Positions 986 to 17,000 of a stretch of DNA of 26,739 nucleotides are shown here, in pieces. How positions within the stretch are numbered: the first letter of the stretch is position 1; each line of letters starts with the position of its first letter. A program made the translations under genes and the position numbers. The notes below the pieces were generated by a model. It was not told the origin of the DNA. It ran no database searches and worked only from the letters and a program-made list of their open reading frames with translations. The stretch is taken from positions 1 through 26,739 of the IMG/VR virus record IMGVR_UViG_3300025886_000131. One strand, given 5' to 3'. The DNA comes from a virus (taxonomy: Duplodnaviria; Caudoviricetes).

Positions 986-1819
986 TTATTTACCAACACT
1001 TAGCTCTGCTTTAATTGCAGCATAAGGATTGTAGTTATTTAATTTAATGGTGCTTTTGTTTGGTATAGATATTTCTGATTTATTATAAAAATCAATCATA
1101 CTTATGCCTGCTTTTAATTCTAATCTAGGCATTGCTCTTCTAGGTCGATCTCTATACTCTTTAGCTTGATCTAAATGATTATTATACAAGTGACAATCTC
1201 CAAGTTGCCCAATCAATTGCCCTGCTTTTAAGCCAGCTCCTTGAGCTAACATTTCTAATAGTAGACCGTACATTGTAATATCGTAAGGTAAACCTAAGAA
1301 AACATCAGCAGATCGTTGTTGCCACATCAAATCCATAACTCCATTATTAATATAAACTTGAAAAGCATAATGGCAAGGAGGCAACGCCATATCGCTTAGC
1401 TCGTGTGGAGCCCATGCGCTAACTATCATACGCCTTGAATCAGGATTGTGGTTAATGCTATACACAAGATTTTTAAGCTGATCTACGCCGTTAAAATCGC
1501 GCCATTGTTTTCCGTATACAGGGCCTAATGTTTCATCAGTTCTGCCTGAGCGTTCATAATCTGGTCGCCAGTATTTAACACCGTTATCTTCAAGATATTT
1601 TAAATCAGTTCTACCATTTAATATCCAAAGCAATTCAGTGCGTGCTGCATTGAAGCTAATTCGCTTTCCTGTGAGGATTGGAAATCCATCCGACATATCA
1701 TGGCGTATAGTTCTTCCGAAGACAGACTTTGTCCCTGTCCCTGTTCTATCCGATTTAGATAATCCTCTGTTGAGTATTTCTGAAATAAGTCCTTTGTATT
1801 CATTTTCTATGTTTGTCAT
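986..1819 (-). CDS. thyA: Thymidylate synthase
   Basis: DRTGTGT, LGPVYGKQWR, PDSRRMIVSAW, MALPPCH (catalytic Cys), QRSADVFLGLPY, GDCHLY. Start moved to MTNIENEY (1819) from the 1951 ATG of the ORF track. Confidence 0.95.
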   Translation of the reverse strand: MTNIENEYKGLISEILNRGLSKSDRTGTGTKSVFGRTIRHDMSDGFPILTGKRISFNAARTELLWILNGRTDLKYLEDNGVKYWRPDYERSGRTDETLGPVYGKQWRDFNGVDQLKNLVYSINHNPDSRRMIVSAWAPHELSDMALPPCHYAFQVYINNGVMDLMWQQRSADVFLGLPYDITMYGLLLEMLAQGAGLKAGQLIGQLGDCHLYNNHLDQAKEYRDRPRRAMPRLELKAGISMIDFYNKSEISIPNKSTIKLNNYNPYAAIKAELSVGK

Positions 1820-2048
1820 AATAGTATTTGTAATATTCAAATATTTTTGCCCATATCTCTGTCTTACCATAAGTATCAGGACTAGTATTTGTTTTACCCT
1901 TGTTTTTAATAACAACGTACCAAGCTGTATCGTTTTTAGCTGATGGTGCAATTGCTATATCGTTTCTGATACACCAGCGTTGAGCTTCCCAAAGGATTTC
2001 TTTGAATGGGCTTTTACCCATATCGCATTTTTTCTTTGCTACTCCCAT
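1800..2048 (-). CDS. Hypothetical protein
   Basis: ORF between primase-helicase and thyA; likely start MGVAKKK overlapping the primase stop. Confidence 0.6.
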   Translation of the reverse strand: MGVAKKKCDMGKSPFKEILWEAQRWCIRNDIAIAPSAKNDTAWYVVIKNKGKTNTSPDTYGKTEIWAKIFEYYKYYYDKHRK

Positions 2049-3745
2049 GGCATTGGTGTTCCGTCTAAAGCAATTGGCTGATGAGGTATAAAGCAACCTG
2101 ATTTAGGTTCCCATTTGAAATGAGCTTCAGCTCCATTCTCTCCTAAGTTTTGGAATTTAACTTTGAGAACTTTCGCTTTAACAGTTTTCGCTTCATAATC
2201 CCTGTGTACCAATATACCGTGATAACTAGCATCATACCACTCACCGCCACCTTTAATATTGTACATAGTCGGTTCTTCAATTTTACCATCTTTATCTTTA
2301 TACATTTTAGTTGGATGAGCTACTATGAAAACTAATACATCATACTTTTTAGCAAAGATTTCAATCTTAGCAAGATATTCCATGGTGTACCTGTTAACAT
2401 CATCGGACCCTCCGACGTCTCTAACTTTATTAAATGGATCAATAACCAAACATTTAATACCTTTACGCTTAACTAACTCAGCTGCTTTCTTTAATACAGA
2501 ATCTAATGTGTAGCGCTCCATATCAATGTGATAGTAATTGCTGTTGCAATGATCTGCTACTTGATTCCAACGCTCGCCTCCAATATCTTCTTTAGTCGGC
2601 ATACCTTGCCAAGTCTTACGCATTAGTTTATGAGCATGTAGATAAGTTGGTTGATTTTCCGGCGACGCAAACGCTGTTTTCCATCCGTAGTTATTATTAT
2701 ATCCGACAACCATTTGATCGACGAAATCACTCTTACCGGAACTAGGAATACCAGTAACAGTAATGAATTGACCAGTATATGTTGAAAAGATATCATCGAA
2801 ATTTTGCAACCCGATTTGAAATCCAGGTTTAAAGCCATTACGCACAAAGTCTGTAACCTCATCTTCGATATCTCTGAACGTTGTAACATTTTCGAGTGGG
2901 ACTGGCTTTGATTTTGAAATACGCTCTGATAACCTTTCTTTTCCATACTTTAGTAAATATTCATTAGCGTCTTTACAATCTTCAAATGTAGTTATGTAAC
3001 AAACTTCAGATCCTAATCTACGGATTAACTCTGCTTGTAATGCTTGCCCTGCTTCATCTGAATCACATGCTAGTATAATCTTATCTTTGTCTTCAAAGTA
3101 ATCAATACAGCTGTCTAAATAATCTAAATTGTTAGTATTAAGTGTTGCTCCGTTTGGAACTGATACTGCGTTTGTTATACCAGCTTCGTGTAGTGCAAGC
3201 ACATCCATTTCGCCTTCAACAATAACACAATACTCAAAACCTACAATGCTGTCAATATTATAAAATACTTTTTCAGCACCTTTGTATAATTTAAAATTCT
3301 TTCTTCCATCACGGTATTTAACATTAGTTAATTCACCGCCCATAAAATAATTGAACTTTATTACATTCTCGGTCTTTTGTGTTTGTGGCATCCACTCAGG
3401 ACCCTCAGTAACTTTTAAGTCGATGAGAGTCTGATGTGAAATACCTCTTGTTTTAAACCACTCTTCAACTTTCATTCCAGGTTCGTTGTGTATAGCAACT
3501 TGCTCAGGTTTGATGTATACTTTTTCAGCTTTACCCTTACGCTGATAAGTATGTAATTGAAATGATTTATCACAATTGTGACAAGTACCGAGACCCCGTT
3601 CCCAATCATAAGAAGCACACTTTGCTTTCTGATTTTTAGGTTTTCTATCAGCAGAACAAAGAGGGCATATACCCTGCTTATTGCCTTCTTCAAGCTTATG
3701 CACATTGAAATCTTCAATTGCAAATCCATTGATCTCTGTATTCAT
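2039..3745 (-). CDS. DNA primase-helicase (T7 gp4/Twinkle-like)
   Basis: Zn finger CPLC...CHNC, TOPRIM IVEGEMD and DSDEAG, Walker A GIPSSGKS, Walker B LVIDP, VAHPTK. Confidence 0.93.
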   Translation of the reverse strand: MNTEINGFAIEDFNVHKLEEGNKQGICPLCSADRKPKNQKAKCASYDWERGLGTCHNCDKSFQLHTYQRKGKAEKVYIKPEQVAIHNEPGMKVEEWFKTRGISHQTLIDLKVTEGPEWMPQTQKTENVIKFNYFMGGELTNVKYRDGRKNFKLYKGAEKVFYNIDSIVGFEYCVIVEGEMDVLALHEAGITNAVSVPNGATLNTNNLDYLDSCIDYFEDKDKIILACDSDEAGQALQAELIRRLGSEVCYITTFEDCKDANEYLLKYGKERLSERISKSKPVPLENVTTFRDIEDEVTDFVRNGFKPGFQIGLQNFDDIFSTYTGQFITVTGIPSSGKSDFVDQMVVGYNNNYGWKTAFASPENQPTYLHAHKLMRKTWQGMPTKEDIGGERWNQVADHCNSNYYHIDMERYTLDSVLKKAAELVKRKGIKCLVIDPFNKVRDVGGSDDVNRYTMEYLAKIEIFAKKYDVLVFIVAHPTKMYKDKDGKIEEPTMYNIKGGGEWYDASYHGILVHRDYEAKTVKAKVLKVKFQNLGENGAEAHFKWEPKSGCFIPHQPIALDGTPMPWE

Positions 3746-3765
3746 TTAATTAAATTGAATTGTTA

Positions 3766-3855
3766 TTACTCTTCATCTAAGCACTCTGGACATATGTCGC
3801 AATAATCAAAGTCACACTTAGTCATAACTTCTTTGCACATTTCACATTGATCCAC
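3766..3855 (-). CDS. Small Cys-rich peptide (29 aa), possible Zn-binding
   Basis: GTG start overlaps the upstream stop (TAGTG); MDQCEMCKEVMTKCDFDYCDICPECLDEE. Confidence 0.55.
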   Translation of the reverse strand: MDQCEMCKEVMTKCDFDYCDICPECLDEE

Positions 3856-4163
3856 TAAAATGGTAAATCATCTGGTGGTCCGACTTGTGCTGCTGGCTGC
3901 TGAGGTTGATCAGTTCTAGGTGCTGCTGCTACATTTACATCGTTTGTCCACACAACTTTAACATTACCAAGGTATGTTTTAGGAGCTTTACCTTCTCGCT
4001 CTTCTTTTGTTTGATCAACAATGACTGGACCTTGATTTCCAAATTGATCTACTTCATCATTGATAGTAATTGTAATAGGTAAATACTTACCCTTCTTGCC
4101 GATGATAATCTTATCTTTCGGAATTTCATTCAAGTTGATACTTGCTTTAATAATACTTGCCAT
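3855..4163 (-). CDS. Putative single-stranded DNA-binding protein
   Basis: Small beta-rich protein with a Q/P linker and acidic DDLPF C-terminal tip; located in the replication module. Confidence 0.65.
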   Translation of the reverse strand: MASIIKASINLNEIPKDKIIIGKKGKYLPITITINDEVDQFGNQGPVIVDQTKEEREGKAPKTYLGNVKVVWTNDVNVAAAPRTDQPQQPAAQVGPPDDLPF

Positions 4164-4184
4164 AATTTTATTGTTTTAATTTAT

Positions 4185-4220
4185 TATATTATCTATTGTT
4201 ATTCGTGTTAGTTTTGTAAA
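4185..4220 (-). promoter_or_regulatory. Class I promoter-like motif
   Basis: TTTACAAAA-N5-ACGA-N9-GATAATATA on the minus strand, upstream of the SSB-like gene. Confidence 0.7.
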
Positions 4221-4222
4221 CA

Positions 4223-4963: not shown

Positions 4964-5472
4964 AAAGTTTTTAGTATTTCAGCAGGTATTTCATACTTCC
5001 CTTTAATAGCTTCTAGACTTCCCCCTGCTTTTAGGAAAGCTTTAGCTTTTGTTAATGCTTGACCTTCTAATTTAGGCTTCACAGATTCTTTCTTACCGTG
5101 ATCTGCGTCTTGAGTGTCATCAATTAAGAATAGATTCCCTAACGCATATTTTTTACCATAACTAGAAGCACTACCGAATTTCTGCGGCATTTGCATACCC
5201 TTCTGAAGTAGATCTACTCCAACAACAGCTGTTGCATGTATAGCATCTACGCCGTCAGTAATAGTAGCTTTAGATTCTAGTATAGGAAAATCAGTGTTAG
5301 ATATTAATTCTTCGCTGATCGTTACCGATACGCCTAGTCTTAATAAAAAAGGTTTTGTTGCTTCAAGGATGTCTTCGGCGGACCTGAAGTTGTACTTGCC
5401 GAAAGAGTTAAATCTACTTTTTTTCGATTTGAACTCGGTTTGGATTGTTGCTAATTTTTCGTTTAATTTCAT
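4960..5472 (-). CDS. ERF-family single-strand annealing protein
   Basis: KSRFNSFGKYNFRSAEDILEA and GSASSYGKKYALGNLF motifs. Confidence 0.85.
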   Translation of the reverse strand: MKLNEKLATIQTEFKSKKSRFNSFGKYNFRSAEDILEATKPFLLRLGVSVTISEELISNTDFPILESKATITDGVDAIHATAVVGVDLLQKGMQMPQKFGSASSYGKKYALGNLFLIDDTQDADHGKKESVKPKLEGQALTKAKAFLKAGGSLEAIKGKYEIPAEILKTL

Positions 5473-6303: not shown

Positions 6304-6484
6304 ACTCGTCTATTATTTTAAAGGCTTTCGCCATTCTATTGTCATCAGCATAGTATATATTGCCGATCTTTGCCATCCACTCGTTAAATTCCTGTGTCAT
6401 AGTTGGTGGTATTGTATCATTATTGTCTTGCCAAGTGTCGGCATAACAATCAAAGTTATTTTCAAATATTTGTCCTATATCCAT
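6290..6484 (-). CDS. Hypothetical protein
   Basis: 64 aa ORF overlapping the sigma start, same strand. Confidence 0.5.
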   Translation of the reverse strand: MDIGQIFENNFDCYADTWQDNNDTIPPTMTQEFNEWMAKIGNIYYADDNRMAKAFKIIDEYEEV

Positions 6485-6606
6485 AATTCTATTTATTTTA
6501 ATCCGTTAAAAAACTAATCTTACCCAAACCGTTGCACAGATCTACTATCTATTTATTTAATACACAAGCTTTTTTTACTTTATTTCATCACCAACATTAA
6601 AACGTT

Positions 6607-6657
6607 GGTCAACAGTTGATAAGAAGCATTACACGCTTTCTTATCTTGGTGTTAGCC
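6607..6657 (+). repeat. attC-like site 1
   Basis: GGTCAAC agtt GATAAGAAGC..GCTTTCTTATC ttggt GTTAGCC; one extra unpaired base in the stem. Confidence 0.65.
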
Positions 6658-6867
6658 ACAATTAATTAATTCTATTAATCTATCTGCAAGCCATTCTTGG
6701 TCTTCGTGGTCTTCTATGTATTTAAGGTCAACTTCTTTTAATTCTGTAATTAACAGTTCACGTTGTTGGCTAACATCAAATAAAACCAATAACTCATCTA
6801 CTGCTTCTTTAGGTTCTAAATGTCCACTTTCAACTTTACCTACTATTTGTTCAAATTTATCTTTCAT
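6652..6867 (-). CDS. Cassette-associated hypothetical protein
   Basis: Starts in the loop of site 2, crosses GTTAGCC (LFDVSQQR) and stops on the TAA of GGCTAAC. Confidence 0.6.
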   Translation of the reverse strand: MKDKFEQIVGKVESGHLEPKEAVDELLVLFDVSQQRELLITELKEVDLKYIEDHEDQEWLADRLIELINCG

Positions 6868-6900
6868 ATCGTTACTTGTTTTATCTGTATTACGTTAGGC
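6768..6900 (+). repeat. attC-like site 2
   Basis: GGCTAAC atc AAATAAAACCAATAAC..GTTACTTGTTTTATCT gtattac GTTAGGC (13/16 complementary). Confidence 0.65.
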
Positions 6901-7056
6901 AACATATACTTCTGTGTATGTTATTGCAATAAACGGTATTAAGTAAATCTTACTTTTAAATTTGCACTCTCCTTTTACACCTACATTACTTTTAACATAT
7001 CCAAAGCCTACGTTAAAAATTGGACTAAATGTTATTTGTTTGTCTACTAATTTCAT
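6895..7056 (-). CDS. Cassette hypothetical protein (53 aa)
   Basis: MKLVDKQITFSPIFNVGFGY...TEVYVA, bounded by GTTAGGCAAC/GTTGCCTAAC; stop lies inside GCCTAAC. Confidence 0.6.
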   Translation of the reverse strand: MKLVDKQITFSPIFNVGFGYVKSNVGVKGECKFKSKIYLIPFIAITYTEVYVA

Positions 7057-7065
7057 AATTACGTT

Positions 7066-7160
7066 GCCTAACAATGGCTAAAGTTAATAGCCTCGCAAGG
7101 TCTTGTTATAATTTGATGGTTAATATTAAAGGCTACTAACCTTAGCCTCGTCCGATAAAA
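7066..7160 (+). repeat. attC-like site 3 (degenerate core)
   Basis: GCCTAAC aat GGCTAAAGTTAATAGCC..GGCTACTAACCTTAGCC tcgtcc GATAAAA (15/17 complementary). Confidence 0.6.
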
Positions 7161-7210
7161 AACATTAAAACGATTTTTTATACTATACGTTGTAAAACAT
7201 TAAAACGATT

Positions 7211-7461
7211 TTACAACAAAGTATATAAATAATGCTACATTCCGTAACTATCATCCATCATCTTTTCAACCGCTTCCATTCCTTTAATAATTTTCTTAAA
7301 TGGTTCATCTAATAATTTTGGGTCTAAATGAAATATATGACCGTATTCCTCTATCTTGTAATAGAAGTCAATTATTTCACTCATTTCCGCTTTCTTTATT
7401 TCTCTTATATCTGACATATCGTTTTATTTAATCCGCACTATTCATATACTAAGCGTTATAT
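7211..7461 (+). repeat. attC-like site 4 with an ORF in its loop
   Basis: TTACAAC aaa GTATATAAATAATGC..GCACTATTCATATAC taagc GTTATAT (13/15 complementary). Confidence 0.65.
7235..7417 (-). CDS. Hypothetical protein (60 aa) inside the loop of attC-like site 4
   Basis: ORF track; lies between the two arms. Confidence 0.6.
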   Translation of the reverse strand: MSDIREIKKAEMSEIIDFYYKIEEYGHIFHLDPKLLDEPFKKIIKGMEAVEKMMDDSYGM

Positions 7462-7671
7462 GCAATTAAGCAAATCCGTTTCTATTTGGTTTATTTCGTC
7501 AAGGGTTCTGTTCAATGGTAAGTACTTTCTATGTGGTTCGTTATTAAGGTTGTCAATTTCAAACCACTTCCATTCATAAATCGCATCTTTAGGGTCTTTA
7601 TAGTTAGGTGGTACAAATTCATTTTGCTCATCCTTAACACCCCAAAGTCCGTTCTTTTTAAATAATTTCAT
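7456..7671 (-). CDS. Cassette hypothetical protein (71 aa)
   Basis: Likely start MKLFKKNGLWGVKDE; bounded by GTTATATGC/GCATATAAC; stop lies in the TAAC box. Confidence 0.6.
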   Translation of the reverse strand: MKLFKKNGLWGVKDEQNEFVPPNYKDPKDAIYEWKWFEIDNLNNEPHRKYLPLNRTLDEINQIETDLLNCI

Positions 7672-7690
7672 TTCAAAATTGCTTAAAAGC

Positions 7691-7785
7691 ATATAACACC
7701 GTATATAGTTTATATGCCTAGTTAATATTCGTTTTAATTCAAAGTGTAGTTTAATGGCACACAAACCATATACAACACGTTGTAA
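7691..7785 (+). repeat. attC-like site 5
   Basis: ATATAAC acc GTATATAGTTTATATGCC..GGCACACAAACCATATAC aacac GTTGTAA (15/18 complementary). Confidence 0.7.
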
Positions 7786-7789
7786 ACAA

Positions 7790-8038
7790 TTACATACCGT
7801 TGTATATTTGGTGCATTTTTACTGCTTCATTTCCATAACCATTAATTGCTAACTTATTTGCCAACTTAAATACTTCGGTATGCAACTGCTCGCTATCGCT
7901 TTCACAACTATGCGTATAATTAATAGCTTCTAATAGCTCTTTTGCAATGTCAGTTATGTCTTCTTGTCTAAAAAAAGAACAGTTATTCTCATTAAATCCG
8001 TGTTCTTCAAATATATTTATTATTTTTTGTAGTTCCAT
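7790..8038 (-). CDS. Cassette-associated hypothetical protein
   Basis: Starts in the loop of site 6 and crosses the arm and GTT box (AINYTHSC). Confidence 0.6.
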   Translation of the reverse strand: MELQKIINIFEEHGFNENNCSFFRQEDITDIAKELLEAINYTHSCESDSEQLHTEVFKLANKLAINGYGNEAVKMHQIYNGM

Positions 8039-8094
8039 TTTTGTTAATTTTAATTATTATTCAACGCTACTAATCATACACTTTCAAGTTGTAA
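7902..8094 (+). repeat. attC-like site 6
   Basis: TCACAAC tat GCGTATAATTAATAGC..GCTACTAATCATACAC tttcaa GTTGTAA (13/16 complementary). Confidence 0.65.
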
Positions 8095-8098
8095 GTAA

Positions 8099-8290
8099 TT
8101 ACAAGCGTTCTATTATTTCATCTAATTGGTCAGTGTTGTGTAATTGGCAGTTATTATAAGCGAAATCCTTTAAATCTTCAACCGCTTGTAACTTCCCTTC
8201 GGTATTGCTAACAACGGGTAAAATTAATTCTTTAACTACCTTTATAAAAGCCTCCTTAGTCATTGCCATAACAACATCGCCATCTACCAT
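8099..8290 (-). CDS. Cassette-associated hypothetical protein
   Basis: Crosses the half-site at 8206-8227 (LILPVVSN). Confidence 0.55.
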   Translation of the reverse strand: MVDGDVVMAMTKEAFIKVVKELILPVVSNTEGKLQAVEDLKDFAYNNCQLHNTDQLDEIIERL

Positions 8291-8907
8291 AGTTGTTGGT
8301 TTAGTAATTCTTTTTCTTTTTTAAGTTCATTACTCATGTTTCTATATATAGTTCTGCTAGAACACTTTAAAGTTTCAGCTAACTTAACCATAGTTATAAT
8401 TTCGTTTTCGTGGTTAATAAAAATCATAGCATCGTATATTTCACTGCTGGATATTTTAGATCTACCTACTAGCTTACCTACTATAGAGAGCTTTTGTCGC
8501 ATATCAAGACCGCTATAATCCTTAAAGATTACTTTACGTAACTTATTAGGAGGAGGTGTTTCGAGATCCATTAAAGACACATCGTATATCATGCTTTGTA
8601 GTAGTTGCTCTGAAACTTTAAACGTAACAAATCCTGCTTTCTTATTACATATATACTTAGACATCGCTTCAAAGCCTTCTTGATCCATCTGAGGATTCAA
8701 GTACCATAATACATACAAATGCCATTTAAGACTCCTATATGTATTGATTTTAGCTTTAGAATTAAATAGTGTATAGCATTGACGTGTACCCGCTTCGTAG
8801 TAATTACCCCAATCAAATACTTCTGTTGGTTTGTCATCTACTGGATCACATCTATAGAATATCCTATGACGATCTAAATATGATGTATCTCTTGTATAAT
8901 GCGACAT
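8284..8907 (-). CDS. DNA-binding protein with C-terminal helix-turn-helix
   Basis: ITMVKLAETLKCSSRTIYRNM HTH pattern; start codon lies inside a 52 bp palindrome. Confidence 0.65.
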   Translation of the reverse strand: MSHYTRDTSYLDRHRIFYRCDPVDDKPTEVFDWGNYYEAGTRQCYTLFNSKAKINTYRSLKWHLYVLWYLNPQMDQEGFEAMSKYICNKKAGFVTFKVSEQLLQSMIYDVSLMDLETPPPNKLRKVIFKDYSGLDMRQKLSIVGKLVGRSKISSSEIYDAMIFINHENEIITMVKLAETLKCSSRTIYRNMSNELKKEKELLNQQLW

Positions 8908-9333: not shown

Positions 9334-9802
9334 ACTTTGCTCTTAATATTATGCTTTCGTTAGCATTTCTTACTGTGTGTTTTTCGTTTTCGTAATAATT
9401 CCAGTACGCATCTACACTACATTCAGTTTTATATTCGTCAGGCATACACTGTGGAGGTTGCGTAAACGCTTGGTTACTAATACGCTTAGGAAAAGTGTAT
9501 AGCACATCACGACATTTACTTATTGTTAAATGCTGTTTGCCGTAACGTTTAGTATACTCTTCGCCTAGTGCTAACATATGTTCGTAAGCCCAGAAGTAAT
9601 TTTCAGCAGAAGCTCGTACCCACACTGCGGACGGATGGTTTTTGTGTGTCGCTTTGTAAGGTACATCTGCTTCTTCTTCATCTAATATAATATGTGCAGT
9701 GCATAGTAATTGAGCTGTTTCAAGGATCATCTTTACTACATGCTTATTATATTGTACTTGTGCTGCTTTTTTAGGACAGTGAGATAGATAGAATATATTC
9801 AT
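9332..9802 (-). CDS. Pyrimidine-dimer DNA glycosylase-like (DenV-related) protein
   Basis: MNIFYL..., KHVVKMILETAQLLCTAH, YKATHKNHPSAVW, PPQCMPDEYK pattern. Confidence 0.7.
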   Translation of the reverse strand: MNIFYLSHCPKKAAQVQYNKHVVKMILETAQLLCTAHIILDEEEADVPYKATHKNHPSAVWVRASAENYFWAYEHMLALGEEYTKRYGKQHLTISKCRDVLYTFPKRISNQAFTQPPQCMPDEYKTECSVDAYWNYYENEKHTVRNANESIILRAK

Positions 9803-10038: not shown

Positions 10039-10074
10039 TATATTATCGTTACTTGTTCGTGTTTAGTTTGTAAA
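10039..10074 (-). promoter_or_regulatory. Class I promoter-like motif
   Basis: TTTACAAAC-N5-ACGA-N9-GATAATATA. Confidence 0.7.
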
Positions 10075-10077
10075 TTA

Positions 10078-10242
10078 TTACTCATAGAATTCGTCTATTG
10101 TTTTATGGTGATAGCCCATAGCTTTAACTATTTCTAACCATAGCTCATGAAGTTCTTCAAGTGTTAAGTCTGAACGATCTACTTGAGTAGATATTTCTTT
10201 ATTATAGTAATTTAATGTTATTTTTAACGGTTCTTTGTGCAT
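10078..10242 (-). CDS. Small hypothetical protein (54 aa)
   Basis: MHKEPLKITLNYYNKEISTQVDRSDLTLEELHELW..., fills the gap between genes. Confidence 0.55.
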   Translation of the reverse strand: MHKEPLKITLNYYNKEISTQVDRSDLTLEELHELWLEIVKAMGYHHKTIDEFYE

Positions 10243-10253
10243 AATTTATTATT

Positions 10254-10859
10254 TTAGTGAAATATTAATCCTACTTTATTTGTTTTATTAAACCATCTAG
10301 TAGCCATTAGATCAGTAGATGAAGCATCGGTATAACCAGCAGAAACAAGATCGCTATGACTAGAAAATATTTTGGTGTGTCTATGTTGTCTCTCATCTAT
10401 TAAATGTTTTTGCTTTCCTGAATCAGAAAATATTATATCATAATTACTTGGCAAAGATGTTTTTAACATCATATCAATCATATTGGTGTAACTGTAAAAC
10501 CGCACGTTCGGATTGTGTATAGCAATCGCGATCCACTTGTTTAAATAAGCGTTAGAATAGTAATCGCCGCTGTCATGCACTCTTACGTAGTCAGGTTTCT
10601 TCTTACGTATTTCAGCATTCATAGCTTCGATAAAGTCATCAGTCTTTGATAACTGGTAACGATTTTCAAACGCTGGTTTTACATTACTCCAGATGTAGGC
10701 TCCTTTCTTAGCGTAACAGAATTTAACACAACTGTCAGCCATGGGGCACGTCAGCTTCCCGCTAGCAGATTTGTAGGCAGGAATACCGAAGTTAAAAACC
10801 CGAAGCCCTAATGCTTTAGATGTTTTTTTAAGTTTGGAATTTTGGGTTAGTAGATTCAT
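10254..10859 (-). CDS. Gp88-like phage protein (three-Cys motif)
   Basis: LLTQNSKLKK, FGIPA, TCPMADSCVKFCYA, VRVHDSGDYY, FYSYT. Confidence 0.7.
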   Translation of the reverse strand: MNLLTQNSKLKKTSKALGLRVFNFGIPAYKSASGKLTCPMADSCVKFCYAKKGAYIWSNVKPAFENRYQLSKTDDFIEAMNAEIRKKKPDYVRVHDSGDYYSNAYLNKWIAIAIHNPNVRFYSYTNMIDMMLKTSLPSNYDIIFSDSGKQKHLIDERQHRHTKIFSSHSDLVSAGYTDASSTDLMATRWFNKTNKVGLIFH

Positions 10860-10971
10860 AATTATTCTTCGTTATCTTTTTTTCGCATTCTCCAGTCAAG
10901 GTATATTGGACCTATAAAAGATGCAGAAAATATGGTTAATAGTACTAGGTTTGTAGTCGTTATCATACAAA

Positions 10972-11007
10972 TATATTATCGATAAGTGATCGTGTTAGTT
11001 TTGTAAC
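10972..11007 (-). promoter_or_regulatory. Class I promoter-like motif
   Basis: GTTACAAAA-N5-ACGA-N9-GATAATATA. Confidence 0.7.
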
Positions 11008-11174
11008 TACCAGCTAGATGGTCTTGTTCTACGTATAATAGCGGTATTAGTTTGAGTATCTATTAGTTTATCAGGAGATACAGAGGCTTGTTTACCGTCT
11101 TCATACTGTATTATGCATAGGTCATAGCCGTGATGTAATAAATCTACGGCTTGTCCTTCGAATCTATAGCTCAT
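11007..11174 (-). CDS. Small hypothetical protein (55 aa)
   Basis: MSYRFEGQAVDLLHHGYDLCIIQYEDGKQASV... Confidence 0.5.
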   Translation of the reverse strand: MSYRFEGQAVDLLHHGYDLCIIQYEDGKQASVSPDKLIDTQTNTAIIRRTRPSSW

Positions 11175-11176
11175 AA

Positions 11177-11440
11177 TTAATCTAATAAAACCATATAGGC
11201 TTCAGTGTTGTTTTTACGAAACCACGTTAATGCTTTTTGAAACTCATTAACCTGCTTTTTTGTTACAGTTTTTGGCGCTACTTCGAATATATAGTTGCTA
11301 CCCATTATATAATCGTAGATAGAGAGCTCGAGAGCGTTAAGTGTATAGCATTCGCCGCTAAAACTGTTAGTAACTTTTTCACCTTTATCATAGATCATAC
11401 CTTGAAACCATTTAGGCACTTTTTGCTCGTTAGTTTTCAT
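11177..11440 (-). CDS. Hypothetical early protein
   Basis: ORF track; tightly packed with neighbours on the same strand. Confidence 0.65.
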   Translation of the reverse strand: MKTNEQKVPKWFQGMIYDKGEKVTNSFSGECYTLNALELSIYDYIMGSNYIFEVAPKTVTKKQVNEFQKALTWFRKNNTEAYMVLLD

Positions 11441-11789
11441 CTTCGTCGCTTATTATGTTAAACAAATTTTCTATACCATCAGATATTTCTTCAGATAATT
11501 GATCGGTATCATTAAATTCTATGCTACCTAAAGCTAGTGAATTGTTGTAGTCAATTTCGAAATCAACCTCATAGCTATCTACGTTACTAAGACTGCTTGC
11601 GTTTATTGATTGTTCTATTACATCTCTAATGTCATTAACAATATCTCTGGTAATTTTTACTTTGTTAACGGCTTCTAATTGGCCTTCAACGATTTTAAGA
11701 TCGTCTTTAACTACTTTAGCGTTTAGTTCTAGCGAGTTTAGTGTAATTTCTAACTCGTTTACTTTGTCTTGTAATTCTGCTTTTGTCAT
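11430..11789 (-). CDS. Hypothetical acidic coiled-coil protein
   Basis: ORF track; heptad-rich N-terminus and acidic C-terminus. Confidence 0.65.
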   Translation of the reverse strand: MTKAELQDKVNELEITLNSLELNAKVVKDDLKIVEGQLEAVNKVKITRDIVNDIRDVIEQSINASSLSNVDSYEVDFEIDYNNSLALGSIEFNDTDQLSEEISDGIENLFNIISDEDEN

Positions 11790-11790
11790 A

Positions 11791-12009
11791 TTATTGGGTT
11801 TTATTTGATTTTTCTATTAATTCGGCAATATACTGCCATACTTTTAATTCTGTTTTATTACCTTCAGCAACTAATACAAATTGCTCACGTGATATGTCAC
11901 CACCGTAGAAGCCACACTCGAGGTCAACCACATCTCGACGGATCTGAAAGTTTAGCATTGAGATCTTAGCGAAAGCTTTGTCGCTAGCTCGGTTGTGTAT
12001 AGCACTCAT
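11791..12009 (-). CDS. Hypothetical early protein
   Basis: ORF track; TAATG overlap with the upstream gene. Confidence 0.6.
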   Translation of the reverse strand: MSAIHNRASDKAFAKISMLNFQIRRDVVDLECGFYGGDISREQFVLVAEGNKTELKVWQYIAELIEKSNKTQ

Positions 12010-12242
12010 TAGTCTTTAACGAATAATTGTTCGCCGAATCGATACATAAACACTGAAACATAACAGTTATCAACGTCGCAGAAAGTCATAATAGACTCGA
12101 CTTCGCCTATAGTAAGATCGCTATAGAACTTGTTATCGATTAAAAGTTTTGTAACTCGAGCTACTGAGTCGGCATATTCTGGGGCGTTACTATTAAGATT
12201 AACTAATAGTTTAGGCTGCAAGCGGTCATAAAGTGTTTTCAT
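12009..12242 (-). CDS. Hypothetical early protein
   Basis: ORF track; first gene after the promoter motif at 12268. Confidence 0.65.
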   Translation of the reverse strand: MKTLYDRLQPKLLVNLNSNAPEYADSVARVTKLLIDNKFYSDLTIGEVESIMTFCDVDNCYVSVFMYRFGEQLFVKD

Positions 12243-12267
12243 TATATTATATTTAGTTTATTACAAT

Positions 12268-12303
12268 TATATTATCGAATATAGTTCGTGTTTATTTTGT
12301 AAT
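12268..12303 (-). promoter_or_regulatory. Class I promoter-like motif
   Basis: ATTACAAAA-N5-ACGA-N9-GATAATATA. Confidence 0.7.
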
Positions 12304-12474
12304 TTTTGTTTGGTTTACTAAGTCATTACCTAACATTTCGTAAGTTTCACCGTCTTCTAATGAACACTCGTTTTTCACGAAATCCCATATTTCTCTGATG
12401 TACTGACCTTCACATCCCGGTTTGTTTTGTTTTTTGAAGTACTCTATAGTATCTTCATTCCAATAGTATTTCAT
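12292..12474 (-). CDS. Hypothetical protein, paralog of 15460..15639
   Basis: Shared YWN..TI..FK and FV...C.LED.ET.EM...DL.N. Confidence 0.65.
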   Translation of the reverse strand: MKYYWNEDTIEYFKKQNKPGCEGQYIREIWDFVKNECSLEDGETYEMLGNDLVNQTKITK

Positions 12475-12614
12475 ATTATTTGAATTTTGCCGCGACTTCG
12501 TATATTTCTTGTCGATCGTCTTTATCTAGGTTGTTGATGTTCAAGCTAGCGTATTGTTTCAGTGCATAGTGTATAAATATGCAATCGCTTTCTGTTAATT
12601 CTATATTTCTCATA

Positions 12615-12935
12615 TTATTTAGTTTTATAAGGTGTTGTTTTTAAGTATGCTGCTTCAAATTCTTGAGACTTTTTATAGTAAAAATCACCAAAGGTGTTTT
12701 CGCCATATAGTTGTTCGTACAAGGTTTTGAATCCAATGTATTGAACTTTTTTGTCGTTTATAAAGAAACCTAATTCTATTTCGCTAATGTCGTGACCATA
12801 CTTTTTACCTATTCCAGGAACTTCTGATACCATACTGTATACTCTTGCTTCTATTTGAAACATACCCTCATCTTTAGTGAATTTAGTGAACACACTAAGA
12901 TCCGTAATTTCATCTACTTTTTTAATTTTACTCAT
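12615..12935 (-). CDS. Hypothetical early protein
   Basis: ORF track, 106 aa. Confidence 0.65.
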   Translation of the reverse strand: MSKIKKVDEITDLSVFTKFTKDEGMFQIEARVYSMVSEVPGIGKKYGHDISEIELGFFINDKKVQYIGFKTLYEQLYGENTFGDFYYKKSQEFEAAYLKTTPYKTK

Positions 12936-12955
12936 TTTACTTGATTTAATTTGTT

Positions 12956-13054
12956 AGTAACTAGTGAGGAATCGAACCTCATACTCGTCAGTAGTATTTG
13001 GTTTGTGGAGTCAAAGCCACAATTATTTTAAGATACCAAACCATACCTAGTTTC
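12956..13054 (-). ncRNA. tRNA-like RNA or degenerate tRNA
   Basis: Perfect T-arm TGAGG-TTCGATT-CCTCA followed by CTAGTT, which pairs with upstream AACTAG; hairpin TTGTGG-CTTTGACT-CCACAA; no canonical D-arm and no CCA. Confidence 0.5.
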
Positions 13055-13206
13055 CGGCTCATTACGTGATCATTAATCGTATCTTTCGCCAATTGCTCTC
13101 ATGCCATAACTCACCACCAATAATGCACCACACCGTATCTCCCCCCTGAGTTCCTAGTTATACTTGCACCTGGATTTTATAGTTCATACCTTGTTGAGCT
13201 TTGTTA

Positions 13207-13437
13207 TTATTCAATTATATTATCGATACCGCTTCGTGTTAGTTCCGCAAGCATTATTGTCACCGCGCCGATCATAACTTCAGAGTGTATAGCACTGTAT
13301 TCTTCGCCGTCTTGAGGAAAATCTTCCAATTGCCAATCAACACTATCTTCCATTAGTTCCAGCGTTACACTGGCAATACCCATTGCGATCTCGTCTAAAG
13401 CTACTGTTCTATCTGTTATTTCCATGTTGTCTTCCAT
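13207..13437 (-). CDS. Hypothetical acidic protein
   Basis: ORF track. Confidence 0.6.
   Translation of the reverse strand: MEDNMEITDRTVALDEIAMGIASVTLELMEDSVDWQLEDFPQDGEEYSAIHSEVMIGAVTIMLAELTRSGIDNIIE
13216..13251 (-). promoter_or_regulatory. Class I promoter-like motif
   Basis: ACGA-N9-GATAATATA with TTGCGGAA variant; upstream of the tRNA-like region. Confidence 0.65.
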
Positions 13438-13462
13438 TTACGTTTTAAATATATATACTTCA

Positions 13463-13759
13463 TTATTGAGGGAATTCTTCTCGCTGAGCGATTGCGGTGT
13501 GAAATGTCCACATGCACTTGTTAATAAATGATAGAGTACTTACCGATGCTTTCTCTATAGAAAAAGTGTATAGCATAGAGTTATAGAATTCCGTTAGGCC
13601 CGGATCGCTTTTGCACCAGTCTTTCTTAAAGCCCTCATAGAAATCACCTTGCATAAAGTTCATACCTATTATTTTACGTTGCTTGTTATACTCTAAGTAT
13701 ATCCACCGATCGTCATCTTCACACCATACGTGTTCTACTTTGTCTATATCGTAATTCAT
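13463..13759 (-). CDS. Hypothetical early protein
   Basis: ORF track; TAATG overlap. Confidence 0.65.
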   Translation of the reverse strand: MNYDIDKVEHVWCEDDDRWIYLEYNKQRKIIGMNFMQGDFYEGFKKDWCKSDPGLTEFYNSMLYTFSIEKASVSTLSFINKCMWTFHTAIAQREEFPQ

Positions 13760-14028
13760 TAGTTCTGACAGTTTTTGTTGTTAAAGTTCATTAAGTGTTG
13801 GATGCGATCAACGTGGTTCGGTATTAATTCTCGCTTGTAGTAATATCCGTGATTACTACTTTCTTTAAGTAATAACTTATTGATTTGGTACACCTGGGTT
13901 TTGTTGCTATAGCGATTAGGATTTTTAGTGCTCACTCTAACATAACCGTTAGTGTAGGTTATTCCGATTCTTCCGTCGTTTAATTCAAAATGTAGTGATC
14001 CGTTTTTAGTAATTTTAAATAGTTTCAT
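13759..14028 (-). CDS. Hypothetical early protein
   Basis: ORF track. Confidence 0.65.
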   Translation of the reverse strand: MKLFKITKNGSLHFELNDGRIGITYTNGYVRVSTKNPNRYSNKTQVYQINKLLLKESSNHGYYYKRELIPNHVDRIQHLMNFNNKNCQN

Positions 14029-14049
14029 AGGTATAGTATTTAGTTATTA

Positions 14050-14229
14050 TTAATTTTTAGGTACGTAAGTTAAGCCTTTATAGTTAAACCACTCTGTAAT
14101 TCCGTCTTGTTCGTCGTATTCATTCCAGATAAAAGCGAATCTTTGTGGTAGATCGCCGATCAAGTATGGTTTGAATACTTTACCGTTTAGACTTATTAGT
14201 TTTGATTTTAGAAATTTTACTTTGTTCAT
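14050..14229 (-). CDS. Hypothetical early protein (59 aa)
   Basis: Start moved to MNKVKFL, just downstream of the promoter motif at 14251. Confidence 0.6.
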   Translation of the reverse strand: MNKVKFLKSKLISLNGKVFKPYLIGDLPQRFAFIWNEYDEQDGITEWFNYKGLTYVPKN

Positions 14230-14250
14230 GATTAGTATTTTAGATTCATA

Positions 14251-14286
14251 TATATTATCGATACCGCATCGTATTAGATTTGTAAT
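14251..14286 (-). promoter_or_regulatory. Class I promoter-like motif
   Basis: ATTACAAAT-N5-ACGA-N9-GATAATATA. Confidence 0.7.
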
Positions 14287-14288
14287 TA

Positions 14289-14504
14289 TTATTTGATCGG
14301 TTCGTTGTAGTGATTCCATAGATTAGTGTGTGAATGGTTTTTGCCTTTACCGCTTGCACCCTTCGACTCCATCTTCCAAGATTTATATTGTTTGTCGGTC
14401 ATTTGACCACATTCTCCACCTTGTTTAACAACATTGTTGCGGTGTATAGCATTCGCCTTCTTCTGGTTTTCAACGTATTCGCACGCTTCTTTCATAGTCA
14501 TCAT
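14289..14504 (-). CDS. Hypothetical early protein
   Basis: ORF track; ATGA overlap. Confidence 0.6.
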   Translation of the reverse strand: MMTMKEACEYVENQKKANAIHRNNVVKQGGECGQMTDKQYKSWKMESKGASGKGKNHSHTNLWNHYNEPIK

Positions 14505-14695
14505 AGTATTCTTTTTAGTTGTTCCTTAATTAACATTATATCTTCGTCGCTTACTAAAACTTCTTCATCGCCTGGTCGATCGTGTATAGTATCGTACATT
14601 GCATCATGAAAGTAGTTACCTACTATCTTATCTAAGCGATTAGCGATCTCTTTAATTTCTTCCCAGGTTAATTTGGTTGTGTTTATATTTCCCAT
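14501..14695 (-). CDS. Hypothetical early protein
   Basis: ORF track. Confidence 0.6.
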   Translation of the reverse strand: MGNINTTKLTWEEIKEIANRLDKIVGNYFHDAMYDTIHDRPGDEEVLVSDEDIMLIKEQLKRIL

Positions 14696-14868
14696 GTTAT
14701 ATCGGTTGGATTATAGTCTCTATCTTCGTAGTCTAATACTGAATGCACTTCGCCTCGGTATTTACTTGCAAATTGTATAGCATCTTCGCGAGTATCGAAG
14801 TCGTAGTGATCTTCGCTATAGTCATCACCATCTTCACTGTGTGTTCTTAATTCTACTGAATATCTCAT
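14683..14868 (-). CDS. Hypothetical acidic protein
   Basis: ORF track; D/E-rich. Confidence 0.6.
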   Translation of the reverse strand: MRYSVELRTHSEDGDDYSEDHYDFDTREDAIQFASKYRGEVHSVLDYEDRDYNPTDITWEI

Positions 14869-14894
14869 AATATTGGTTTTTAGTTATTAATTAT

Positions 14895-14993
14895 TTATTC
14901 TTCATCTTCGTCAAATTCCGCCCACTCTAGGCAATCACCGCATCGATCGGAGTTCAGTAAACTTGGTTCCGCACCGCAACAATTACTCCACAT
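14895..14993 (-). CDS. Small Cys-rich zinc-ribbon-like peptide (32 aa)
   Basis: MWSNCCGAEPSLLNSDRCGDCLEWAEFDEDEE. Confidence 0.6.
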   Translation of the reverse strand: MWSNCCGAEPSLLNSDRCGDCLEWAEFDEDEE

Positions 14994-15303
14994 CGGTAGA
15001 TAGTATTTCACCTAAATGTCTCACATTCGAAGGTAGATTAGTACTTTGACTCCAGTAACCGCGTTTCAACCAATTAGGTAGGATATTTAGTTTAGGTAAC
15101 ATGACCTTTAATACCTCATCGTGATTGTATTTTATGGTTTGACCCTTGTTATTGGTGAAAGTGATTTCTTGATTTCGACCGTACCACGACTTCCGAACTA
15201 CGAAGTTTTTACGTGTTATTGGTGGAAATACCGCTTTTAGTTGTTCCGGTGTTAACTCTTTTAGTAGTTGTTCTTGAGTTTTAATAGTTTGTTCAGTAGA
15301 CAT
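14983..15303 (-). CDS. Hypothetical early protein, paralog of 16248..16565
   Basis: Shared FPPI.RKNFVVRKSW.GRNQ.ITFTNNK and KRGYWSQSTNLP.NVRHL. Confidence 0.8.
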   Translation of the reverse strand: MSTEQTIKTQEQLLKELTPEQLKAVFPPITRKNFVVRKSWYGRNQEITFTNNKGQTIKYNHDEVLKVMLPKLNILPNWLKRGYWSQSTNLPSNVRHLGEILSTDVE

Positions 15304-15357
15304 GATAATTTGGTTTTATAAGTTAATAATTAAATTCGTATTTTGTTAGTATTCATA

Positions 15358-15393
15358 TATATTATCGAACGGTGTTCGTAACGGTTTTGTAAA
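15358..15393 (-). promoter_or_regulatory. Class I promoter-like motif
   Basis: TTTACAAAA-N5-ACGA-N9-GATAATATA. Confidence 0.7.
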
Positions 15394-15459
15394 GATCGAA
15401 GGTGTATATTTATTTTGTAGTATAAATAGTAGAGTAGTTGTAACTCACCTCTTAAGTGC

Positions 15460-15639
15460 TTAAAACACTCGATTTATTAGGTCAATTACGAACATTTCTT
15501 CAGTTTCGTCGTCTTCGAGTATACAATCGATCTCTACGAACTCTGTTATCGCTGCAATTGTTTGTTTTAGGGTTAAATAGTTTGATTCGAACTTAAAATG
15601 CGCTATTGTTTGGTCATTCCAGTAAATTGGCTTCTTCAT
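15460..15639 (-). CDS. Hypothetical protein (59 aa), paralog of 12292..12474
   Basis: MKKPIYWNDQTIAHFKFESNYLTLKQTIAAITEFVEIDCILEDDETEEMFVIDLINRVF. Confidence 0.65.
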   Translation of the reverse strand: MKKPIYWNDQTIAHFKFESNYLTLKQTIAAITEFVEIDCILEDDETEEMFVIDLINRVF

Positions 15640-15680
15640 ATTCTTTGTTTTGATCTGTTATACTTAATTTGTTATTCATA

Positions 15681-15716
15681 TATATTATCAATACCTCGTC
15701 GTGTAGGTTTTGTAAA
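15681..15716 (-). promoter_or_regulatory. Class I promoter-like motif
   Basis: TTTACAAAA-N5-ACGA-N9-GATAATATA, abutted by TGCTATACGC. Confidence 0.7.
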
Positions 15717-15881
15717 TGCTATACGCGGAAAAAACGGTAATTTTCAATAGAAAATACTAAGATTTAGCTAAATACCTAAAATGCTATACGCTGCCGCGTA
15801 GGGCGGAGTCTACTCTTCCGATTCTATTGCAAGATCAGGCCATTAAACCGCTACTTATTAGGTAACGGCTGGGTAATTAAG

Positions 15882-15931
15882 AGTGTGACATTAGCCTGTT
15901 ATATATAATAGTAGTAGGCTATCGTCGCACT
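15882..15931 (+). promoter_or_regulatory. Palindromic element, copy A
   Basis: AGTGTGACATTAGCCTGTTATATATAATAGTAGTAGGCTATCGTCGCACT. Confidence 0.7.
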
Positions 15932-15932
15932 G

Positions 15933-16073
15933 CTAGGATGATGATCCGAACTCTTGGATGCATCGTGCAGTCATCTCTTGTTCGTCTGACCATCCTGAAG
16001 GATATTCCTCGATGTATGTGCATTGCACGTATTTGGATCCATCTGGTCTGGTAATTGTTTTGCTTGTGTACAT
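15933..16073 (-). CDS. Small hypothetical protein (46 aa)
   Basis: MYTSKTITRPDGSKYVQCTYIEEYPSGWSDEQEMTARCIQEFGSSS. Confidence 0.45.
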   Translation of the reverse strand: MYTSKTITRPDGSKYVQCTYIEEYPSGWSDEQEMTARCIQEFGSSS

Positions 16074-16180
16074 ATTATTGTTTTATTTGGTGGATAGCTT
16101 TAGCGATTAATTTAAGTTCATCAAAGATGGTTAGAAAGAAATTGTTGATAGTTTTCATGTTATAGTTATTTAGATTCGTA

Positions 16181-16216
16181 TATATTATCAGTTGTTATTC
16201 GTAATGGTTTTGTAGG
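16181..16216 (-). promoter_or_regulatory. Class I promoter-like motif
   Basis: CCTACAAAA-N5-ACGA-N9-GATAATATA. Confidence 0.7.
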
Positions 16217-16247
16217 GGATCGAAAAGATCCTGTTAAGGAGGAGAGG

Positions 16248-16565
16248 TTATTTAGACCCCTCCGTTGCATCTGCAATGTCTGCTAGATGTCTAACATTAG
16301 TTGGCAGATTAGTTGACTGTGACCAGTATCCGCGCTTGATCCAGCAAGGCATTATGCTTAGTTTCGGCAACATCGCTTCAAGTATCGTATCGTGATTGTA
16401 TGTTACGACTTGGTCTTTATTGTTCGTAAAGGTAATGATCTGGTTGCGTCCGAGCCATGATTTTCTGACTACAAAGTTCTTGCGATTGATTGGTGGGAAG
16501 ATTAATGCTTTTTCTTCATTAGACATTTTTGCGATTGCATTGGTAATTAATTCTTGACTGTTCAT
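16248..16565 (-). CDS. Hypothetical early protein, paralog of 14983..15303
   Basis: High amino-acid similarity to 14983..15303. Confidence 0.8.
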   Translation of the reverse strand: MNSQELITNAIAKMSNEEKALIFPPINRKNFVVRKSWLGRNQIITFTNNKDQVVTYNHDTILEAMLPKLSIMPCWIKRGYWSQSTNLPTNVRHLADIADATEGSK

Positions 16566-16609
16566 AATTTACTGTTTTTATTTATTATTATTATTATTTG
16601 TTATTCACT

Positions 16610-16645
16610 TATATTATCAGGTTGCAGTCGTGATGGTTTTGCAAC
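16610..16645 (-). promoter_or_regulatory. Class I promoter-like motif
   Basis: GTTGCAAAA-N5-ACGA-N9-GATAATATA. Confidence 0.7.
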
Positions 16646-16679
16646 TATTTTTTAAAATGCAGGGGTTGAGGAGGAGAGG

Positions 16680-16850
16680 TTATGGAATTGGCGTAAAATC
16701 CATCAGATCGTTGTACTCTGCGATCAAAGCATCGTACTGAGGTGTCAGATGTTCGAACCCACCGTCTCGGATCAATATCTCAAGAGAGTCGATTATAGAT
16801 TCAAGGCGCAATTCAGGGTGGGCAATCATTAGAGATTTTTTCATGGTCAT
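16680..16850 (-). CDS. Small hypothetical protein (56 aa), first gene of the left arm
   Basis: MTMKKSLMIAHPELRLESIIDSLEILIRDGGFEHLTPQYDALIAEYNDLMDFTPIP, directly after the promoter motif at 16868. Confidence 0.55.
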   Translation of the reverse strand: MTMKKSLMIAHPELRLESIIDSLEILIRDGGFEHLTPQYDALIAEYNDLMDFTPIP

Positions 16851-16867
16851 TATTATTTAGATTCACT

Positions 16868-16903
16868 TATATTATCAGTAGCCGGTCGTAGTAGTCTTGT
16901 AAA
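16868..16903 (-). promoter_or_regulatory. Class I promoter-like motif
   Basis: TTTACAAGA-N5-ACGA-N9-GATAATATA, abutted by TGCTATACGC. Confidence 0.7.
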
Positions 16904-17000
16904 TGCTATACGCTTCGCTACGCTCCGCGATCATACATGAACAAGAGAGGTTATCGGTACAGCTTCCATTAGCTACAGCATAGATCGTACGGCAACACCG

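Follow-up and report, generated by a model that had tools for sequence, protein, structure and literature searches.

The window analysed here is the whole stretch of 26,739 nucleotides of the IMG/VR record IMGVR_UViG_3300025886_000131, a fragment of a 58–68-kb phage. The left arm is read leftward and carries small early genes, followed by genes for a sigma factor, Erf, an exonuclease, a primase-helicase, thyA and MazG. The right arm carries GroEL, GroES and lysis genes. The subjects of this analysis are an asymmetric word of 10 letters, with the consensus TGCTATACRY, and the first open reading frame (ORF) of the late arm (17358–17624), whose predicted HNH-like product is a candidate for the nickase that reads the word. 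The phage family is uncultured, aquatic and related to Flavobacteria phages. The nearest cultured terminases are those of Flavobacterium and Cellulophaga podoviruses (32–43%), from which a Bacteroidota host is inferred.

In the window, the exact sequence GTGTATAGCA is seen nine times on the + strand and once on the − strand, and its core GTATAGCA is seen 11 times on + and four times on −. As the original prediction claimed, no copy of the core lies at 17–26.7 kb. All 15 coordinates listed there are correct, and one further near copy, GTGTATAGTA, is present at 14582. At up to one mismatch, the window contains 16 sites, and the word ranks first among the 8-, 9- and 10-mers. In 100 dinucleotide shuffles, the number of such sites averages 2.04 and never exceeds 10. 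Thirteen of the 16 sites are inside genes at offsets of 5 to 405 bases, and all three frames are used, as had been reported from the sequence. In 3000 synonymous-codon shuffles of the window, the mean number of exact sense copies is 0.48 and the maximum is four, while nine are observed. The enrichment thus persists when codons are preserved.

The site logo, based on the flanks of 279 sense and 163 antisense contexts, is sharp: TGCTATAC, then A or G, then mostly C or T. No second conserved box is found in these flanks. Third codon positions are identical in 527 of 645 cases (82%) at the sites and in 4474 of 8192 cases (55%) for the same residues elsewhere, so synonymous change at the sites is suppressed in relatives. 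In orthologous genes with protein identities as low as 57%, the site is kept whole or disappears along with its amino acids. The third-position conservation bears out the proposal that the word is a cis-acting signal, and the data support selection on it. The sites and the associated features are listed in the table.

Table. Copies of the word and associated features in the window
Feature	Position	Strand	Remarks
Word TGCTATACAC	1456..1465	+	Inside thyA, antisense to the gene; presumed cut 1459/1460
Word	3488..3497	-	Coding strand, primase-helicase gene, A-I-H
Word TGCTATACAT	5236..5245	-	Coding strand, Erf gene, A-I-H; retained in homologues as distant as 57% identity
Word	8769..8778	-	Coding strand, 207-aa HTH gene, C-Y-T
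Word	9495..9504	-	Coding strand, pyrimidine-dimer-glycosylase-like gene, L-Y-T
Word	10515..10524	-	Coding strand, GP88-family gene, A-I-H; all-or-none in 101 homologue rows
Word	11341..11350	-	Coding strand, 87-aa gene, C-Y-T
Word	11995..12004	-	Coding strand, codons 2-5 of 72-aa gene
Word	13285..13294	-	Coding strand, 76-aa gene, A-I-H; third positions 47/47 conserved
Word	13566..13575	-	Coding strand, 98-aa gene, L-Y-T
Word	14442..14451	-	Coding strand, 71-aa gene, A-I-H
Near copy TACTATACAC	14582..14591	-	Change in otherwise invariant core; may be non-functional
Variant TGCTATACAA	14773..14782	-	Coding strand, 61-aa gene
Word TGCTATACGC	15717..15726	+	Intergenic; adjoins TTTACA box of promoter 15682-15716
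Word TGCTATACGC	15782..15791	+	Intergenic; 65 bp further upstream of promoter 15682-15716
Word TGCTATACGC	16904..16913	+	Adjoins first early promoter 16869-16903; presumed cut 16907/16908
GCGGAGC / GCGTAGC / GCGAAGC run, small GNA-loop inverted repeats	16911..16929	-	Leads into the 16904 site
HNH-like gene (small, basic, cysteine-free, 88 aa)	17358..17624	+	First late-arm gene; candidate reader and nickase
Contig depth ~1.7-1.9x early arm	14965..16926	.	Four DNA runs

The layout was surveyed over 854 distinct site contexts and 839 promoter contexts. In 21 whole or near-whole records, the word is concentrated in the first 10 kb of the early arm and becomes sparser further on. On the coding strand of early genes it occurs about once per kb, with a gradient from the early end. 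There, 348 copies are on the coding strand and 24 on the opposite strand (106 versus 13 independent positions). A codon model for early genes predicts near parity of the strands, 6.15 versus 5.25 per 100,000 codons, and polarity as a by-product of codon use was rejected. Eighty loci with the GP88 gene were found; most carry the word, and one lineage does not. The thyA site at 1456 is kept in eight of 11 sequence variants among thyA homologues of at least 71% identity.

In promoter flanks, 203 copies are on the opposite strand and 56 on the coding strand. Measured from the GATAATA box, these sites cluster at −29 to −60, next to the TACA box, and are often in tandem at spacings of 9–14 bp. None of the 839 promoter contexts contains a site from −28 to +24. 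In the window itself, ten putative tripartite early promoters, T(T)TACAA-N-ACG-N-GATAATA, are located on the − strand at 10040–16903. The flipped copies at 15717 and 16904 do abut the TTTACA box of early promoters, as had been noted. The single flip of orientation at 14.8–15.7 kb described along with them holds for the window but not for the relatives, in many of which the two orientations interleave within the first 3 kb. A single flip point or origin was rejected for this reason. Orientation tracks the context, gene body versus promoter flank, and not a fixed point.

GNA-loop DNA hairpins are unusually stable. A stem of at least 5 bp ends at the presumed cut, after TGCT, in 36 of 256 promoter-side sites versus 1.4% in shuffles, and in just nine of 632 coding-strand sites. 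Neighbours of opposite orientation are never less than 50 bp apart, and one of 142 lies closer than 100 bp; for neighbours of the same orientation, 87 of 576 pairs are spaced by less than 16 bp. This spacing fits the avoidance of double breaks but also slippage, and it is not counted as support. In the late arm, where the genes run the opposite way, the 10-mers of 15 gene-bearing records are split 8:5 in favour of the early-coding strand, and all five opposing copies are at 31–34 kb in the region of the giant protein. Ten more records give 8:0. The pooled ratio is 16:5 (p 0.027, on related genomes), with five further gene-bearing records left out of the count.

Protein clustering over the 21 records singled out the ORF at 17358–17624. 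It is missing from all four word-less records that were searched in full (G007 was set aside as incomplete). When loci with 4 kb or more of upstream DNA are compared, the density is 0.68 sites/kb in the 155 that have the gene and 0.077 in the 50 that lack it. After removal of duplicates and of loci under 3 kb, 102 loci have both gene and word, 42 have neither, 15 have only the gene and one has only the word. On a FastTree tree of GroEL (121 rows), there are nine independent starred pairs, with 5.7 going the same way and 0.0 the opposite way (median p 0.031). Twenty-five whole records were picked to cover both gene states. The 10-mer is present in 0–3 copies in the nine gene-less records, in three copies in one with an in-frame stop, and in 3–23 copies in the 15 gene-bearing records. 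At G159 62195–62434, the HNH-like gene contains an in-frame TAA and three copies of the word are left; this looks like a word/gene system in decay.

Three other proteins were rejected as readers of the word. The 106-aa early protein (14983–15303) occurs where the word is absent. This ORF and 16248–16565 are paralogues of a conserved basic 105-aa protein right behind the first promoters, the family of which has 1375 homologues in long and short subtypes; no Pfam family or fold match was found for it. For the 148-aa late protein and the 207-aa HTH protein, carriers and non-carriers of the word are not separable by residues on inspection. The 148-aa protein (21656–22102) is located behind GroES in nearly all relatives and shows a winged-helix-like pattern by eye; in MW202828, the protein at its position is annotated as 'repressor protein'. 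Other top words in non-carriers (GTTCACACTCAT, GTAGCTACA, AATCGACACA) are few or repeat-bound, and their equivalence to the word is unsupported. The early region of a word-less relative, the Manatee Spring podovirus MW202828 (L181 40000–50000), contains eleven perfect palindromes GTGTCGTTAACGACAC. A sister lineage (L033, L050–L065) without the word and the HNH-like gene contains GTTCACAC(T/C)CAT, three times sense and once antisense at 2–4-kb spacing; these copies are probably its promoters.

The model of the 17358–17624 protein (pLDDT 82) has predicted strands at 53–57 and 65–69 and a helix at 70–74, behind two helices. It places D-x-x-H on strand 1 and N-R on the helix, which is the arrangement of an HNH active site. 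D54, H57, N73 and R74 are invariant, and D56 nearly so, in 88 homologue rows. The nearest named cluster in Atlas is HNH_3 (0.93). PHROGs places 57 of the 88 members in an unnamed family, and a profile search of 1.84 billion proteins gave 289 matches, all unnamed. The protein is predicted to be HNH-like and is a candidate nickase.

Ends of contigs point to a break inside the word. There are 114 unique contig ends within 6 kb of the gene; seven of them terminate precisely at RYGTAT| and one at CTGTAT|. Eight of 695 ends begin with ATACRY (expectation 0.89); another locus shows the missing flank for five of them, and it is TGCT each time. A fresh set of 122 ends gave one more, at a coding-strand site, and one contig (L231) ends on the other side of the cut, at TGCT|. 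Pooled, nine of 789 unique locus ends, a denominator that includes flank cuts, begin with ATACRY against 1.03 expected (P 1.4e-6), while nine other registers tested on the same ends give 0–3 each. Two contigs of this phage, L002 and L494, end at window position 1460 inside the thyA site, and their independence is uncertain. These ends indicate a break at TGCT^ATACRY; its strand, its nature and an origin in virions are beyond contig data. Hairpins beside several of the end sites could bias ends to a neighbourhood, not to one base. Among 32 of the 904 contig pieces in the runs of this phage, none ends in the ATACRY register.

Homologues of the HNH-like protein are found in cultured phages: gp80 of phi38:1 and proteins of phi40:1 and Calle, annotated as 'structural protein', and a protein of the Maribacter phage Panino. 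The presence of gp80 in virions is taken from the annotation of its record; PMC13288928 makes no mention of gp80. TGCTATAC is not enriched in any of these four phages. The gene in the Pervagoviridae phages phi38:1, phi40:1 and Calle and in Panino is accompanied by a word with an RCTAT core, which lies on one strand of the early arm. This word, CACTATCA, is different from TGCTATACRY, and no opposite-strand class of it was seen. Its strand ratio is 15:1 in phi38:1 and 24:2 in Panino; in the late arm of Panino, which is read the other way, it is 7:0. A clear CACTATCA bias is seen in four of 24 records with the phi38:1-type gene. No contig end at CACT/ATCA was found among 47 phi38:1-type loci.

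According to PMC11780129, it has been known for some 50 years that phage genomes can carry motif-linked nicks, and no function for them is agreed on. The virion DNA nicks of Pseudomonas phage tf are at TACT/RTGMC, always after base 4 and on one strand, with 11 of 14 in the left half (PMC3517423). Of the 542 copies of the related word WACTRTGAC in LUZ24-like phages, 88% fall at least partly in coding sequence, where the coding strand predominates (PMC11780129). These systems and the one described here have in common a short asymmetric word with a strict core in 9–16 copies, mostly in coding sequence on its coding strand and concentrated in the early half of a two-arm podovirus genome. The letters (TRCTAT) and the cut register after base 4 are also alike. 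In tf the nicks are mapped and the enzyme is unnamed in the available parts of PMC3517423 and PMC11780129; here an enzyme candidate is named and the nick is presumed. Only here is there an opposite-strand class, in tandem, with hairpins and against the first promoters (four of the 15 copies of the core in the window, and 203 promoter-side contexts in relatives).

tf and LUZ24 also encode a distant relative of the small HNH protein, linked through intermediates. The top match of a broadened profile among the frames of phiEco32, tf, LUZ24 and T5 is phiEco32 gp58 (E 0.023). A search with gp58 in turn finds frames in tf (16126–16413, E 2e-26) and LUZ24 (15622–15930, E 1e-23). These HNH-like frames are off-frame from or overlap tf_29 and LUZ24 gp26, and they are candidates for the tf nickase. 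The D-H and N columns align across the window protein, gp58 and the tf ORF. The chain from the window to tf passes through two generic podovirus members, L406 and L410. The narrow family profile finds no homologue in tf or LUZ24, so that the link runs only via gp58. phiEco32 contains just two TACTRTGMC in its 30–77 kb, both on one strand.

The interruptions of T5 and phiKMV-like phages are likewise motif-linked and denser in one half (PMC3517423, PMC11780129), although their words are unrelated to TGCTATACRY. They are dispensable: nickless mutants exist in T5 and phiKMV-like phages (PMC3517423, PMC11780129), and the gene considered here has been lost repeatedly. T5 has the late genes sciA and sciB. 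T5.153, which we take to be sciB, is located beside the portal gene and shows a CxxC/HH/CxxH HNH-like pattern. It is a zinc-type protein and does not match the profile of the window HNH family.

Taken together, TGCTATACRY is probably a site nicked on the word-bearing strand, TGCT/ATAC, by the phage's own small HNH-like protein. We give this reading a probability of about 0.7. Among the four roles suggested in the original prediction, the nick site is favoured by contig ends in one register and by co-loss of the word with the HNH-like gene. Because the gene is the first of the late arm, the protein would be produced late and the packaged DNA would keep the nicks, mostly in the non-template strand of those genes that are first to enter and to be transcribed. 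Such a nick would leave RNA polymerase unblocked and could serve as a swivel or as an entry for recombination. More tentatively, opposite-strand copies would be tolerated only where cutting the template strand does no harm, in the stretch immediately upstream of the first promoters and often with hairpins alongside, and these copies would set, or help to make, the genome end beside the first promoters. The purpose of the nicks may be torsional relief during entry and transcription, packaging, or recombination.

Several facts weigh against nicking by this protein. The contig ends come from contigs alone and are silent on which strand is cut; a nick in one strand need not end a contig, and in four runs of this phage many sites are spanned by listed contigs. 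Of the nine register-exact ends, eight fall at opposite-strand sites; the commoner coding-strand sites account for one. Known nick words are on one strand only, and here both strands are selected. The late-arm 8-mers split 10:10. The 17358–17624 protein has no Pfam or PDB-sequence match, and the best Foldseek E is 0.047, with HNH rows topping the viral list and no Z of 5 or more. The direct match between the window protein and tf is weak. On a tree of the early A1 protein, which is short, seven pairs give 3.6 versus 0.0 (p 0.125). The word is absent from 15 of 117 loci with an apparently intact gene, which means that the gene is not sufficient for the word, or that its specificity or use can lapse. 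In phi38:1, many CACTATCA copies are directly before start codons, where a role in translation is possible. Twenty of the 24 records with the phi38:1-type gene have no clear CACTATCA bias, most of them being partial or unrelated, and no such word was found with the distant homologue gp46 of Elemovirus.

A broader form of nicking by the HNH-like protein can be offered tentatively. A minimal HNH protein carried in the virion could be the long-sought site-specific nickase of tailed phages, with words that differ between lineages and share an RCTAT core (TGCT^ATAC, CACT^ATCA, TACT^RTGAC). It would have two jobs in this family: non-template nicks in early genes, and opposite-strand, hairpin-flanked cuts that set the genome end against the first promoters.

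The same enzyme and cut register are compatible with another purpose. The opposite-strand copies might be packaging or terminus cuts made by the HNH protein with terminase in a cos/pac-like manner, as its main job, with coding-strand nicking secondary. The concentration of register-exact ends at opposite-strand sites, with the late-arm side retained, agrees with this, and so do the hairpins that end at the cut; 69 of the 114 contig ends near the gene are within the first 2 kb. HK97 gp74 is reportedly an HNH nicking endonuclease beside cos and terminase. HNH genes beside cos and terminase are common (PMC3592412), and like those nicking endonucleases the protein here is small, encoded near the presumed genome end, and associated with DNA ends at its site. 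It differs in its cysteine-free minimal motif and in having many sites across coding DNA, not one cos.

Contig depth is also relevant to a terminus. Four DNA runs show about 1.7–1.9 times the depth of the early arm over 14965–16926; one edge of this stretch runs across the 16904 site, and the depth change is accompanied by unitig breaks across 16899–16926 in these runs. In three of the four, loose ends of a relative diverge at 16928. The block is possibly a terminal repeat, or one common to a co-occurring relative; the roughly 1.8-fold depth step would favour packaging cuts in the former case but may stem from the relative in the latter. Against packaging as the main job, the gene is absent from nine of the 25 whole records and is hence not the sole route to ends, and the thyA site, 15 kb from the promoters, ends contigs too. 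The strong selection on coding-strand copies would also be unexplained. We regard packaging as the main job as rather unlikely.

Plain binding at the word, another of the roles first suggested, is possible, and the data favour a nick site over it. The form considered is an operator or stoperator-like site at which a late protein, a non-cutting HNH-like one or another, shuts down early transcription. Stoperators of cluster A mycobacteriophages are asymmetric words that are polar in the early region and are also found beside promoters and at gene junctions. The word here is likewise asymmetric and polar in the early region. Its promoter-side copies adjoin the upstream promoter box in either orientation (203 and 56), and the late arm holds the candidate gene. 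Unlike stoperators, the copies here are mid-gene, take either orientation at promoters, and are tied to a nuclease-like gene and to DNA ends. Orientation does not follow transcription at all sites, since both orientations are seen at promoters and late-arm copies are antisense to genes. The late-arm pattern leans towards a strand rule, as for nick words, over stoperators. The promoter core is free of sites, and so are the 24 bases behind the GATAATA start, a frequent position for repressors; binding alone yields no contig ends in one register. The early 106-aa protein and the winged-HTH-like late 148-aa protein are present in word-less genomes, and no integrase or repressor family was found among the 65 proteins scanned of the whole relative G013. 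We consider an operator improbable.

A host signal mimicked by the phage, such as a Chi-like site or host-factor box, would suit a short, asymmetric, polar word that is denser towards the presumed entering end, but it is very improbable: the presence of the word follows a phage gene, and in 120 genomes of the family of a Flavobacteriaceae MAG (metagenome-assembled genome), which may not be that of the true host, the 10-mer is seen 0–9 times per genome and the reversed control 0–7 times, with no over-representation. The matches in G027 (12, with a 62,630-bp repeat spacing) and G029 (eight in one contig) are clustered like phage DNA. An RNA element or extended −10 promoter box has equally little chance. 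The coding-strand bias in genes and the resemblance of TGCTATAC to the extended −10 consensus TGnTATAAT would agree with it, but the position of the conserved last T is A or G in 98% of sites, a second box is absent and gene offsets vary, and the opposite-strand copies upstream of the first promoters and the DNA ends inside the word are left unexplained.

Other observations were made in the window and its relatives. A second element at about 8900–8950, 15885–15930 and 17290–17310 consists of GTGYGACGATAGC, about 25 bases, and GCTAATGTCRCA, forming an imperfect inverted repeat; it may be a class of promoters used by the phage sigma factor, or a site bound by a dimer. The region 17358–23883 and the left arm have different nearest relatives, and GroEL is 81% identical to that of G011 and 52–64% to others, which suggests an arm exchange near the early–late junction. 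A 1.9-kb block of small ORFs (6388–8284), without a copy of the word, is missing from related strains in two runs; within it, 7155–7233 matches Cellulophaga phage phi39:1. In 12940–13200, a short tRNA-like stretch near 12950–13040 draws very deep contigs. For 13000–14800, RNA-library contigs of a relative are far deeper over 13.0–14.5 kb than elsewhere. The complete relative G013 further encodes a terminase, a portal protein, a ribonucleotide reductase and a protein of 3009 aa. Its 65 proteins yielded no DNA polymerase, although a primase-helicase, a ligase and the ribonucleotide reductase are present.

No description of TGCTATACRY, or of nicks in related phages including the phi38:1 group, was found in the open-access literature, supplements excluded. 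Motif-linked nicks are already known; new here are an enzyme candidate with repeated co-loss, a two-strand layout and cultured test phages. The ends of contigs in public metagenomes can reveal cut positions. The virion polymerase gp66 of crAss-like phages prefers single-stranded templates (bioRxiv 2020.03.07.982082), and nicks or hairpins beside promoters would be useful if the 3009-aa protein were a gp66-like virion polymerase. The analysis provides a nickase candidate that has been lost repeatedly together with its word, and extends motif-linked nicking, at the strength given above, to abundant marine and freshwater podoviruses of the Bacteroidota type. The cultured phages phi38:1, Panino and tf make both the enzyme and the purpose of the nicks testable.

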